Shown here one piece after another: positions 33,954 through 39,581 of a stretch of 64,000 nucleotides of DNA. This DNA comes from Eledone cirrhosa (lineage: Eukaryota): contig OZ024766.1 of assembly GCA_964016885.1 (NCBI GenBank), positions 5,766,001 through 5,830,000 of the forward strand, in the 5' to 3' direction. The notes beneath the pieces were generated by a model, which saw only the letters and a list, made by a program, of their open reading frames with translations, did not search any database and was not told where the DNA came from. Within the stretch, counting starts at the first letter, position 1, and every line of letters begins with the position of its first letter. A program made the position numbers and the translations under genes.

Positions 33954-34046
33954 TCAACTGGAGGCGGCCCAGATAATCAAAGACAGCAGCACGACCACAG
34001 CCAGCACCACCAGCAGTATGACACACATGTTTCTTCGGGACCTCTT
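33954..34046 (-). CDS. STX12: Syntaxin-7/12-like, distal alternative terminal (transmembrane) exon
   Basis: Pyrimidine tract plus TTGCAG acceptor, phase 0. Encodes [30 protein letters not shown], closely resembling the basic linker and TMD of STX7/STX12. Confidence 0.85.
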
Positions 34047-34089
34047 CTGCAATAGAGAGAGAGAGGAGGGTGTGGTGAGAGGGAACAGC

Positions 34090-34295
34090 AGAGGCCAAGA
34101 GAGAGAGAGTGTGTGTAGAGGGACGGGGGGGAGCAGGCAGAGGAGAGAGAGAGAGAGAGAGAGAGAACAAGAGAGAGAGAGAGCGTGTAGAGAGGGGCGG
34201 GGGAGCAGGCAGAGGAGAGAGAGAGAGAGAACAAGAGAGAGAGAGAGAGAGAGAGAACAAGAGAGAGAGAGCGTGTAGAGGGGCGGGGGAGCAGG

Positions 34296-34328
<33 letters not shown>

Positions 34329-34371
34329 ACAAGAGAGAGAGAGCGTGTAGAGGGGCGGGGGAGCAGGCAGA

Positions 34372-34406
<35 letters not shown>

Positions 34407-34501
34407 ACAAGAGAGAGAGAGCGTGTAGAGAGGGGCGGGGAGGCAGAGGAGAGAGAGAGAGAGAACAAGAGAGAGAGTGTGTAGAGGGGCGGGGGAGCAG
34501 G

Positions 34502-34540
<39 letters not shown>

Positions 34541-36810
34541 GAGAGAGTGTGTAGAGGGGGAGGCAGAGGAGAGAGAGAGTGTGTAGAGGGGGGGGGGGAC
34601 CAAGAGAGAGAGAGTGTAGAGGAGGGAGAGGAGAGAGAGAGAACAAAAGAGAGAGTGTGTAGAGAGGGGCGGGGAGGCAGAGGAGAGAGAGAGAGAGAAC
34701 AAGAGAGAGAGTGTGTAGAGAGGGGCGGGGAGGCAGAGGAGAGAGAGAGAGAGAACAAGAGAGAGAGTGTGTAGAGGGGCGGGGAGGCAGAGGAGAGAGA
34801 GAGAGAGAACAAGAGAGAGAGTGTGTAGAGGGGCGGGGAGGCAGAGGAGAGAGAGAGAGAGAACAAGAGAGAGAGTGTGTAGAGGGGCGGGGGAGCAGAG
34901 GAGAGAGAGAGAGAGAACAAGAGAGAGAGTGTGTAGAGGGGCGGGGGAGCAGAGGAGAGAGAGAGAGAACAAGAGAGAGAGACCGAGAGAGAGTGTGTAG
35001 AGGGGGAGGGGAGAGAGAGAGAGAGAGAGACCAAGAGAGAGAGTGTGTAGAGGGGCGGGGAGGCAGAGGAGAGAGAGAGAGAGAACAAGAGAGAGAGTGT
35101 GTAGAGGGGCGGGGGAGCAGAGGAGAGAGAGAGAGAGAACAAGAGAGAGAGTGTGTAGAGGGGCGGGGAGGCAGAGGAGAGAGAGAGAGAGAACAAGAGA
35201 GAGAGTGTGTAGAGGGGCGGGGAGGCAGAGGAGAGAGAGAGAGAGAACAAGAGAGAGAGTGTGTAGAGGGGCGGGGGAGCAGAGGAGAGAGAGAGAGAGA
35301 ACAAGAGAGAGAGTGTGTAGAGGGGCGGGGAGGCAGAGGAGAGAGAGAGAGAGAACAAGAGAGAGAGTGTGTAGAGGGGCGGGGAGGCAGAGGAGAGAGA
35401 GAGAGAGAACAAGAGAGAGAGTGTGTAGAGGGGCGGGGGAGCAGAGGAGAGAGAGAGAGAGAACAAGAGAGAGAGTGTGTAGAGGGGCGGGGAGGCAGAG
35501 GAGAGAGAGAGAGAGAACAAGAGAGAGAGTGTGTAGAGGGGCGGGGAGGCAGAGGAGAGAGAGAGAGAGAACAAGAGAGAGAGTGTGTAGAGGGGCGGGG
35601 AGGCAGAGGAGAGAGAGAGAGAGAACAAGAGAGAGAGTGTGTAGAGGGGCGGGGAGGCAGAGGAGAGAGAGAGAGAGAACAAGAGAGAGAGTGTGTAGAG
35701 GGGCGGGGGAGCAGAGGAGAGAGAGAGAGAGAACAAGAGAGAGAGTGTGTAGAGGGGCGGGGAGGCAGAGGAGAGAGAGAGAGAGAACAAGAGAGAGAGT
35801 GTGTAGAGGGGCGGGGAGGCAGAGGAGAGAGAGAGAGAGAACAAGAGAGAGAGTGTGTAGAGGGGCGGGGAGGCAGAGGAGAGAGAGAGAGAGAACAAGA
35901 GAGAGAGTGTGTAGAGGGGCGGGGAGGCAGAGGAGAGAGAGAGAGAGAACAAGAGAGAGAGTGTGTAGAGGGGCGGGGAGGCAGAGGAGAGAGAGAGAGA
36001 GAACAAGAGAGAGAGTGTGTAGAGGGGCGGGGAGGCAGAGGAGAGAGAGAGAGAGAACAAGAGAGAGAGTGTGTAGAGGGGCGGGGAGGCAGAGGAGAGA
36101 GAGAGAGAGAACAAGAGAGAGAGTGTGTAGAGGGGCGGGGGAGCAGAGGAGAGAGAGAGAGAACAAGAGAGAGAGACCGAGAGAGAGTGTGTAGAGGGGG
36201 AGGGGAGAGAGAGAGAGAGAGAGACCAAGAGAGAGAGTGTGTAGAGGGGGGGGGACCAAGAGAGAGAGAGTGTAGAGGAGGGAGAGGAGAGAGAGAGAGA
36301 ACAAAAGAGAGAGTGTGTAGAGGAGGGAGAGGAGACCAAGAGAGAGAGAGTGTAGAGGAGGGAGAGGAGAGAGAGAGAACAAAAGAGAGAGTGTGTAGAG
36401 GGGGAAGACCAAGAGAGAGAGTGTGTAGAGGGGGAGGGAGAGGAGAGAGAGAGAGAGAGAGAACAAGAGAGAGTGTGTAGAGGCTGAGGAGAGAGAGAGA
36501 GAACAACAGAGACCAAGAGAGAGTGTGTAGAGGGGGAGGAGAGAGAGTGTAGAGGGAGAGGAGAGAGAGAGAGAGTGAGAGAGAACAACAGAGACCAAGA
36601 GAGAGTGTGTATGGGGGGGGAGAACAACAGAGACCGAGAGAGAGTGTGTAGAGGAGAAGGGAGAGGAGAGAGAGAGAGAGAGTATGTGAGAGTGAGATAG
36701 TAGAGTAGAGGAGGAGGGAGAGAGAGATAGAGAGATAGATAGTAGAGTATGGTGAGAGAGTAAGTAAGAGGAGGGAGAGAGAGAGAACAACAGAGAGAGA
36801 GAGAGAGAGA
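34090..36810. repeat. 54-bp GA-rich minisatellite with a GGGGCGGGG in each unit
   Basis: Unit GAGTGTGTAGAGGGGCGGGGAGGCAGAGGAGAGAGAGAGAGAGAACAAGAGAGA; matches the 18-aa periodicity of the ORF track. Confidence 0.95.
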
Positions 36811-36999
36811 GAGAATGAAATATTTGGAAATATTTACTAAACATTTCTGTAACTTGTGAGTGGCCTAGTGGTAAGGGTGTAGGAGCTAGGACCATAATGT
36901 TGGGGGTTGTGAGTTGTGTTCTTGAGCAAAACACTTCACTTCACTTCACGGTGCTCCTGGAGACACTGTCTGATAGCCACTAATTACTAACTTCTATGT

Positions 37000-37514: not shown

Positions 37515-37840
37515 ATAATAATGAAATTATTGTGTAAAGTGCTCAGGTGCACTACAACTCGTCAATATAGTACATAGAATAATACACAAATGCCAGGGAA
37601 GTACATGTTTGTATGTGTTAGCTGTAGTGTTGGCGGATCTCGGGAAGCATGGAGGCCTTAAAGGATGCAGTGTCTCGACAGCTAACAACTGATGCAGGTA
37701 GTTTGTTCCATGCTTCAGCAACTCTGAGCGTGAAAAAATGTTTCCGAAAGTCATGGGAACTGTGCTGTTTTCTTACTTTGTGGGCATGTCCACGTGTGTT
37801 AGACACATGGAAATCGAAAAGGCACTCAGGGTTGTTATGA
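37515..37840 (-). mobile_element. CR1-like LINE 3' end
   Basis: TRGHAHK...RKHFFTLRVAEAWNKLPASVV...FK is the typical CR1-group ORF2 C-terminus. The 3' UTR ends in (ATT)n; a second 3' UTR copy lies at ~54660-54780. Confidence 0.85.
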
Positions 37841-38257
37841 AACCAGAGCCAGATTTGTGTGCAGGGGTCACATCAAAATGGTTAAATGGTTAGCATTAAC
37901 AAAAAGAAAACGAAAACCACCCCCAAAATACTAAGATGAATAGAAAAATTACTGACGGACAGGTCTGTCAGTCAGGTGGGTAGAGTGGGTGTCAAAAACA
38001 AGCAAACAAATTAAACAAAAATAACAAAAATATAAAAACTATATATATATATATATATATATGTGAAGTATTTCCATAGGAAGGGTAAAGGAAAGGAGAG
38101 TGCTCTATGCAAGCTAAAGAGCTATTTAGTTATGTAATAAACAACATAAGACAAATATTCCATTTACCAAAGGTTTCACAAAGACAGAAGAACTCAACAC
38201 AGGCGTCTGAAATCGCTCATCAATATGAAAATTTAATATGGACGTAATATTAAATAT

Positions 38258-38600
38258 GGAAGTCGGACCTTTATAAAGACCTGAAAATCTGCCTCTTCAT
38301 TGCTGTAGTGGGGTCTGTGCTGCTGTACGGATCTGAGGCTTCGACACTGACCAAGAAACTCACTCAGATGGTGGATGGGTGCTACACGAGAATGCTGAGG
38401 ATGGCTCTGAACATTAATCAGTATACACTTAGGATGAAGAACTCAAAATTGTATGGGAGCTTACCAAAAGTCAGCTCAAAAGTGGCCCAGAGGAGAGTGA
38501 GGTTAGCTGGACATGCTCACCGACATCCAGAGTTGACAGTGCACTCAGTGCTCCTGTGGGAGCCCCTTACACAGACACACTAGAAGAGGGAGACTGAGGA
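38258..38600 (+). mobile_element. RTE-like LINE fragment
   Basis: LLYGSEASTLTKKLTQMVDGCYTRMLRMALNINQY...RLAGHAHRH; same family as 21533-22365. Confidence 0.85.
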
Positions 38601-38607
38601 TATATAT

Positions 38608-38725
38608 ATAGGAACCAGTAAGACCCCGACGGCTGAGCTCAAGCCGTTTCGACGGCTAATTCTGAGTCCAGAATTAGCCGTCGAAACGGCCTGAGCTCAG
38701 CCGTCGGTGTCTCACTGGTTCCTAT
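38608..38725. repeat. ~118-bp palindrome carrying the 3' half of a hammerhead-like motif
   Basis: Arms ATAGGAACCAGT...GCTAATTCTG / CAGAATTAGC...ACTGGTTCCTAT contain GAAACGGC..GCCGTC. Single-arm copies occur at ~22885-22925 and ~47860-47896. Confidence 0.8.
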
Positions 38726-38914
38726 TACCCACTCTACTACCCTAAGTATTGAGTACTTTGGTGCGTTATGGTCCACCTGGTTCCTTACCACATTTCCTTC
38801 GTTATATATATATATATATTGTTATACTTTGGGAGGGTCATGTTGCCAATAAGAAACACATGCACCAGTTGCTTTATATATATATATATATATATATATA
38901 CATACAAACAGCTC

Positions 38915-39330
38915 CAAAGTAACAGAGAGGAGACTCAGGTTAGCTGGACATGCTCACCGACATCCAGAGCTGACACTGCACTCAGTGCTCCTGTAGGAGC
39001 CCCTACATGGACACACTAGGTTAGCTGGACATGCTCACCGACATCCAGAGCTGACACTGCACTCAGTGCTCCTGTGGGAGCCCCTACATGGACACACTAG
39101 GTTAGCTGGACATGCTCACCGACATCCAGAGCTGACACTGCACTCAGTGCTCCTGTGGGAGCCCCTGCATGGACACACTAGAAGAGGGAGACCGAGGTTA
39201 ACATATGTTGATACCCTAAGGACAGACACTGGTCTGTTGGAGACGCAGGGCATGGCAGCGATAATGAGGGACAGAGACCGCTGGAGAGAACTCGTCCATG
39301 GATCTCAGGGAATTTACCCGCCTTAGACAT
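38915..39330 (+). mobile_element. RTE-like LINE 3' end with internal ~81-bp triplication
   Basis: RLAGHAHRHPELTLHSVLLWEP segment occurs three times, then RRGRPRLTY...RDRDRW...*. Confidence 0.85.
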
Positions 39331-39369
<39 letters not shown>

Positions 39370-39473
39370 TATTTTTTTTTTTTTTTAGAAAACAAAAGAA
39401 ACGTGATTTGGGTTCAACCAAAGAAAATACCTATTGTTTGTGAGTGTTTTTAGGGGAGGGTGTTAGATCAGGA

Positions 39474-39581
39474 TTAATTGCTGGAGTTGGTGCCGTAGTA
39501 AATTCCAAGGACTAGTGCAATAATCGTTACAATAATTAACAAGGTGATGAGAAGACAACATTTTTTCTTTCGGACTTTTTT
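39474..39581 (-). CDS. STX12: Syntaxin-7/12-like, proximal alternative terminal (transmembrane) exon
   Basis: TTTCCTCAACAG acceptor, phase 0. Encodes KKVRKKKCCLLITLLIIVTIIALVLGIYYGTNSSN*. Confidence 0.85.
   Translation of the reverse strand, partial: KKVRKKKCCLLITLLIIVTIIALVLGIYYGTNSSN

Follow-up and report, generated by a model that had tools for sequence, protein, structure and literature searches.

Based on the analyses described here, we suggest that a single Syntaxin-7/12 gene on the minus strand of the window (the whole 64,000-nt stretch of Eledone cirrhosa DNA that was analysed) supplies two different membrane anchors by including or skipping a cassette exon, A, ahead of a shared last exon, B. 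In this model, inclusion of exon A would lead to translation of anchor A, leaving B as 3' UTR, while skipping of exon A would likely lead to translation of anchor B. Because the Habc and SNARE domains are identical between the isoforms, partner choice would be unchanged, and only the anchor, through its number of Cys residues, its outer Trp/Tyr and its short luminal tail, would alter sorting or fusion efficiency. We favor, on balance, a reading in which the anchor swap retunes the position of the protein along the surface-to-early-endosome cycle. Counting against this reading, one report describes TMD length as varying little across compartments (PMC13748404).

The gene model comprises nine upstream coding exons that together encode 253 aa, the last of them ending at 40166 in phase 0. 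Exon 1 (54264..54336, start codon at 54336) is supported by a tblastn match of 96% to P0001, and tblastn likewise supports exon 2 (51061..51135), the Habc exons 3 (49555..49624) and 4 (49369..49468), the linker exon 6 (45353..45402) and exon 7 (44003..44093), while exon 5 (47929..48072), in which the Habc domain ends, carries the PF14523 hit. Exon 8 (43160..43232), whose junction with exon 9 appears as a loose end in run X1 (see below), encodes the part of the SNARE motif with the central Gln, and exon 9 (40166..40248) encodes the C-terminal half of the motif and provides the phase-0 donor at which the isoforms branch. Phase-0 acceptors at 39581 and 34046 add tails of 35 aa and 30 aa, giving proteins of 288 aa and 283 aa; thus, the gene model reproduces the exon phase, acceptors and protein lengths proposed in the sequence-only reading. 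Exon A (39431..39581, 151 nt) encodes a basic linker, a CC pair, a TMD and a stop codon at 39476-39474, followed by 43 nt of UTR and a donor at 39431/39430. The coding part of exon B (33954..34046) encodes a basic linker, one C and a TMD ending in Trp. Both tails thus consist of a basic linker and a single TMD. Both strands of the whole window together contain 178 polypyrimidine-AG sites; five of these are followed by a short hydrophobic ORF, and among these five ORFs only the tails at 39581 and 34046 have at least four basic residues within the first eight. If the exon 9 donor is read through, 44 residues follow, and these lack a basic linker. Isoforms of chiton and oyster have a duplicated exon 9, but tblastn with 20 proteins detected no second copy of this exon within the window.

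The gene encodes a Syntaxin-7/12 (Syx7'a) Qa-SNARE that, by orthology, would act in endosome fusion. The Habc domain is of the Syntaxin_2 type, with PF14523 scoring above the cut-off on exon 5, and the orthologue P0128 matches the Habc structure 2DNX with an E-value of 1.7e-30. The SNARE motif is closest to those of STX12 and STX7, P0128 matching 2NPS and 1GL2, and the central SNARE Gln of P0128 is also present in the window protein. With these best PDB matches to STX12 and STX7 domains, the protein shares the Syx7'a lineage with vertebrate STX7/STX12 and Drosophila Avl/Syx7. In a midpoint-rooted ML tree built with the tails removed, the window protein falls within the molluscs in a clade with STX12, the STX7-like representative and the lampreys. 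A second Syx7-family gene of this genome, on contig C1, falls in the other clade (UFBoot 100), which would correspond to the Syx7'b lineage; the tree contains no named landmark, and atlas searches supplied no name for this clade. Searches of the genome with exon 5 and with PF14523 returned one match each, and both missed the C1 paralogue.

The splicing evidence comes from X1, the sole run matched in the run search, whose type and tissue are unrecorded and which is cDNA-derived, as the spliced junctions in it demonstrate. A 207-nt X1 contig with a layout of 28+151+28 matches 39584-39431 without mismatch, and its loose ends correspond to exon 9 on one side and to the first 28 nt of exon B on the other. 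Because this contig joins exon 9, exon A and exon B, exon A is spliced onward to exon B from its own donor, and both inclusion junctions, 9-A and A-B, are present in the RNA of this gene, which places exon B in the 3' UTR of the A isoform. The proposal of two alternative terminal exons thus gives way to a cassette exon A and a shared last exon B. X1 also contains 14/14 sampled words of the exon B stretch. X1 has no cover at 39402-39430, and five short contigs at 39370-39401, with 3 mismatches, were left out of the evidence. Of the two junctions that the sequence-only reading had named for inspection, 40166-39581 is seen in X1, while the skip junction 40166-34046 is not directly seen in X1 contigs. 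The ends of these contigs nevertheless strongly imply that skipping occurs in this species: the upstream contig breaks off two letters past 40166, and among five simulated splicing models the observed contig ends fit only the one that combines inclusion with skipping and none of the four others.

Two other readings can be weighed against these contigs. If A and B were true alternative last exons produced by alternative polyadenylation, the branch two letters past exon 9 would be predicted as well, and AATAAA/ATTAAA hexamers are present 1.3-2.5 kb downstream of A; however, this arrangement predicts continuation into the intron, whereas the X1 contig passes from 39431 into B, and in 18 other transcripts the UTR contains B after A, which makes it very improbable. 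It is even harder to credit that this species uses exon B purely as UTR and never translates it. The skip junction is not itself covered, and the contig containing A is no shallower than the upstream contig (100.5 vs 85.7), a comparison of contig depths that cannot rank isoforms. By contrast, the branch at +2 requires a second continuation, and B retains an intact frame and acceptor and 29/30 identity to Octopus B tails.

The arrangement of a cassette exon with a shared last exon resembles NMD-coupled poison cassette exons in that inclusion introduces a stop codon ahead of the last junction. It differs from these in that exon A encodes a complete, conserved anchor and in that its stop lies 43 nt upstream of the last junction, below the 50-55 nt rule. 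As this distance is within the usual safe range, the A stop would escape exon-junction NMD. In HCT116 cells, the 55-nt threshold has been reported to make no difference for introns located in 3' UTRs (PMC13223760). In genomic contigs, a strict donor lies at most 50 nt from the A stop in 6/11 cases vs four sites in the 2038 nt beyond, a count that is weak because it is confounded by short gaps and from which L043 was left out because no acceptor was found. Short gaps in compact genomes would place the donor close to the stop in any case. As the sequence-only reading had noted, the distal exon is located behind a 2.7-kb minisatellite; we measured the array at about 34100-36790. It is CT-rich and, on the minus strand, includes a 2435-nt zone free of AG (34047..36484, 89% pyrimidine) that leads up to the exon B acceptor. 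A search for a distant branch point behind the minisatellite found no strict consensus in 2.85 kb. We do not propose a regulatory role, because a relaxed branch-point match lies approximately 30 nt from the exon B acceptor and intron 2 has a comparable zone of 408 nt.

The same two proteins are recorded in RefSeq/GenBank for Octopus syntaxin-7, with isoforms of 288 and 283 aa in O. bimaculoides (XP_014776156.1 and XP_014776158.1) and O. sinensis (XP_029653417.1 and XP_029653418.1). The body of the window protein is 94% identical to the Octopus orthologue P0126, and the two tails are identical in kind and equal in the length of the resulting proteins; compared with O. bimaculoides, 22/35 residues are identical in the window A tail vs 29/30 in the B tail. 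The Octopus isoforms differ from ours in being products of automatic annotation and were compared as protein records rather than exon models. A literature search found no published description of this splicing event, and the phylogenetic depth of the two-anchor pair appears to be unreported. In total, 16 pairs with an identical body and two tails were found in molluscs, Lineus and mites. In leave-one-out typing, 26/26 tails were assigned correctly to A or B. A Trp/Tyr close to the outer end is present in 16/16 B tails vs 4/16 A tails. Juxtamembrane Cys residues are more numerous in A than in B in 11 pairs, equal in three and fewer in two; the contrast of CC with a single C amounts to no more than a trend. 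In the A/B profile, the A tail of the window protein scores neutral (0.1). An apolar-run metric was not used because it fails on cephalopod B tails.

Among 35 spliced metagenome contigs, the 3' UTR of 18 contains a second tail, compared with 3/2100 shuffles and no matches over 237,510 nt of reverse strand. The remaining 17 show none; in 13 of these, the tail that is present is of the proximal type. With the mollusc-trained profile, the proximal tail scores as more A-like in 27/30 contigs. In 16/18 two-tail contigs, no more than about 43 nt separate the stop from B, and an acceptor-like YAG precedes B in 3/18, so that alternative 3' splice sites may take the place of a cassette in some lineages. 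Together, these comparisons support the conservation of both anchors in other species, as well as the earlier claim that one gene makes both. Because the two-anchor pair recurs in molluscs, a ribbon worm and mites, A and B likely do different jobs. Alternatively, the anchors could be nearly equivalent for sorting and the pair kept for tissue-specific expression, mRNA regulation or subtle TMD-SNARE contacts within the same compartment. Both anchors are Ile/Val/Leu-rich and similar in length, vertebrates and several invertebrate records have a single tail type, and amphioxus and starfish each have two tails that do not sort into A and B. Yet class-specific residues are held across phyla (26/26 and 27/30), unlike what redundancy predicts, and the last exon is common to both isoforms. 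We consider near-equivalence unlikely, albeit the most serious of the alternatives.

It had also been proposed that the isoform pair reproduces the vertebrate split, with A and B dividing early- and late-endosome fusion in the manner of STX12 and STX7. This proposal draws on the presence of two conserved anchors and on the reliance of STX7 sorting on its juxtamembrane Cys, since the Cys239Ala form of human STX7 stays at the plasma membrane according to a review (PMC8047069), a finding that also favors the anchor-swap reading, together with the higher Cys number in most A tails. However, all intact vertebrate tails are B-like (112/112 from 116 hits, nearly all named STX12), as are both lamprey genes and P0322, the single STX7-like representative with an intact tail. 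Because STX12 and STX7-like tails are both B-like, the division in vertebrates does not run between A and B; each vertebrate protein examined has one B-like tail, and the functional split arose by gene duplication. Moreover, the cytosolic domains of the A and B isoforms are identical, and the genome has a separate Syx7-family paralogue on C1, while in Drosophila the second Syx7 lineage (Syx7'b) serves late endosomes (PMC13639004). An early/late division between A and B is therefore doubtful. Returning to the preferred anchor swap, the A-then-B pair would predate the divergence of molluscs and arthropods, with only the B-like anchor kept in vertebrates. More tentatively, we speculate that the pair is an address switch of the early-endosome Qa-SNARE gene predating that divergence, in which anchors in fixed order, one hidden NMD-safe in the 3' UTR, are directed by splicing to two compartments or cell types, and that vertebrates lost A and duplicated the gene instead.

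Several C-terminal ends from one Qa-SNARE gene are known for C. elegans UNC-64A/B/C, mouse STX3A/B and Medicago SYP132 alpha/beta, and the functions of the SYP132 isoforms differ (review). However, these are exocytic syntaxins, while the gene described here belongs to the endosomal Syx7 family, and here the unused anchor remains as UTR in the same mRNA. In STX3A/B, the SNARE motif is changed as well, whereas here only residues past the SNARE motif differ. Thus, anchor splicing is extended from exocytic to endosomal syntaxins, and isoforms that differ solely past the SNARE motif and are distinct across several phyla offer a clean test of how far the anchor, with its outer aromatic residue, juxtamembrane Cys and luminal tail, sets the compartment and fusion behavior of a SNARE. 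With the second anchor in the 3' UTR, assemblies list only the first anchor, and RNAi or probes aimed at exon B would strike both isoforms.

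Nine coding exons of the syntaxin-7/12 gene (54336 to 40166, minus strand) encode a shared body of 253 amino acids and end in phase 0. From here, the acceptor of exon A at 39581 adds 35 amino acids, giving a protein of 288 amino acids, and the acceptor of exon B at 34046 adds 30, giving a protein of 283 amino acids. The exon reconstruction thus confirms the two downstream phase-0 tails proposed in the sequence-only reading. Across the whole window, a short hydrophobic ORF lies behind five of 178 polypyrimidine-AG sites, and among these five sites only A and B also have a basic linker. 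Ahead of the exon B acceptor, 36484-34047 forms an AG-free zone of 2435 nt (89% pyrimidine on the sense strand), and at the gene's other acceptors such zones span 38-408 nt; the zone could influence acceptor choice or could be plain repeat growth. Read-through past the exon 9 donor (40165 onward) would add 44 amino acids without a basic linker; the annotated third isoform in O. sinensis (P0127, isoform label X1, 306 amino acids) is apparently such a read-through.

Evidence on splicing comes from one public sequencing run of unrecorded type, in which the contigs are spliced (with exon 8-9 as the loose end). A contig of 207 nt in this run spans 39584-39431 with zero mismatches; its two ends carry exon 9 sequence and the first 28 nt of exon B, respectively. 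Because this contig joins exon 9, A and B, A is an internal exon (151 nt, donor at 39431/39430) and not, as had been proposed, one of two terminal exons; spliced on to A, exon B becomes 3' UTR within the A mRNA. Of the two junctions sought in RNA, 40166->39581 is present in this contig, while the exon 9-B skip junction 40166->34046 was not directly seen in the contigs of the run, in which every one of the 14 words sampled from the B stretch is present. The upstream contig ends two letters beyond exon 9, i.e. at the point where A and B first diverge. In a simulation with k=31, inclusion together with skipping yields every observed end (+2; 28+151+28 = 207), and none of four alternative models yields all of them. 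We consider it very probable that A is a cassette exon that is either included or skipped. The contig ending at exon 9 is 1295 nt long, implying a 5' UTR of ~530 nt upstream of 54336.

The same two tails recur in named proteins. The shared body matches O. bimaculoides syntaxin-7 at 94% identity, which places the source among the octopods; RefSeq already holds the two isoforms for this species as well as for O. sinensis, and B-type proteins were found in O. vulgaris and Argonauta. Sixteen same-body pairs, chosen for having two tails, comprise three coleoid, one chiton, five gastropod, four bivalve, one Lineus and two mite pairs. A single tail per gene was found in the records checked for Mizuhopecten, Mercenaria, Mya, Limulus, Tachypleus, Glandiceps and lampreys; amphioxus (P0289/P0290, P0292/P0294) and Acanthaster (P0297/P0119) records have two tails but no A/B pair, and amphioxus has a third ending without an anchor. 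An A/B profile classified 26 of 26 tails from the 13 non-cephalopod pairs correctly in leave-one-out runs. Trp or Tyr lies close to the outer end in 16/16 B and 4/16 A tails; juxtamembrane Cys are more numerous in A in 11 of the 16 pairs, equal in three and fewer in two, and the oyster B tail has none. The window's own A tail scores 0.1 on the profile, which counts against conservation, and it is the more diverged from O. bimaculoides (A, 22/35 identical; B, 29/30). Among octopods, identity is 21-26/35 for A (39581-39477) and 25-29/30 for B (34046-33957), A diverging faster than B and the body (94%). The tail pair is conserved more deeply than had been supposed. The C-terminal half of the SNARE motif (exon 9) exists in two versions in chiton (P0137 vs P0010) and oyster (P0057 vs P0285), a pattern that suggests mutually exclusive exons used together with the A/B tails; in the window, exon 9 was found only once. 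Gene models from Mactra (P0069) and Nucella (P0077) fuse the start of tail A onto tail B, consistent with an A-then-B genomic order.

In a metagenome scan, 80 of 182 matching loci were kept and the 42 with a long ORF were examined, seven of which were set aside as genomic or distant (L039, L040, L043, L051, L052, L067 and L068). A second basic-linker-plus-TMD tail lies within the 3' UTR in 18 of the 35 spliced contigs; four themselves end in a B-like tail and 13 have no second tail. Controls gave 3/2100 for shuffled UTRs and no match over 237,510 nt of reverse strand. The nearest named proteins are gastropod-, annelid-, mite- and insect/crustacean-like, taxa that are rough because several contigs are only 47-60% identical to them. 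By estimate, B begins no more than ~43 nt after the stop in 16 of the 18 (exceptions, 111 and 314 nt). Twelve genomic contigs have tandem tails, with an acceptor ahead of the second in 11. In 27 of 30 contigs, the proximal of the two tails is the more A-like, related contigs not being independent and the profile being trained on molluscs and Lineus only. We infer that the A/B pair probably has a single origin predating the mollusc-arthropod split. YAG immediately precedes B in 3/18 transcripts, and alternative 3' splice sites may therefore replace the cassette in some lineages.

The proposal that the isoforms mirror the vertebrate STX7/STX12 split is not supported, as vertebrate tails are B-like and a separate Syx7-family gene exists. 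All 112 intact tails among 116 vertebrate hits (P0142-P0257, nearly all named STX12) score as B-like, as do those of both lamprey genes, hagfish and P0322, the sole STX7-type tail compared, whose assignment to STX7 rests on its motif and its place in the tree. A juxtamembrane Cys is present in 112/112 of these intact vertebrate tails, whereas syntaxin 13 has none according to a review (PMC8047069). The second Syx7-family gene lies on another contig of the same genome (G000:C1, ~103,544,550-103,522,190, minus strand; L105-L107), with one tail found across 80 kb. Its product shares 37% identity with the window protein and 68% with P0370, and belongs to a different clade (UFBoot 100). Animals are reported to have inherited two paralogues, Syx7'a and Syx7'b, which in Drosophila serve early and late endosomes, respectively (PMC13639004). 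The second gene is likely the Syx7'b/Syx20 paralogue; given its clade and the Drosophila role of Syx7'b, the octopod probably has a distinct late-endosome gene.

The two anchors, the inclusion junctions and the shared exon B are directly observed; the two-anchor arrangement is real and already partly annotated, and its function is predicted. Skipping of A would give isoform B. The stop codon of A lies 43 nt upstream of the A-B junction, under the 50-55 nt threshold of the NMD rule (PMC13223760), a threshold that, according to the same source, made no difference for introns of the 3' UTR in one line of human cells; the A mRNA may escape NMD. As Habc and SNARE domains are identical, both isoforms would bind the same partners, and the anchor could alter residence along the cycle from the surface to early/recycling endosomes, or fusion efficiency. 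That A and B sort differently is a tentative proposal, to which we give slightly less than an even chance; its one support is the analogy with human STX7, which is acylated at Cys239 and in which an Ala mutant remains at the plasma membrane (reviewed in PMC8047069). TMD composition has been tied to compartment, with length varying little, in a study whose main text mentions neither isoforms nor splicing (PMC13748404). Our literature search, in which most subscription journals were outside scope, gave no account of two anchors in Syx7-family genes, and papers or supplements on SNARE evolution may list them. Alternative anchors have already been described for UNC-64 (PMC1914072), STX3A/B (reviewed in PMC11119284) and SYP132 (reviewed in PMC12155092). 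Elsewhere in the window, 2001-4600 is GC-rich (61%), and its minus strand has frames rich in Gln and His; it may hold another gene.
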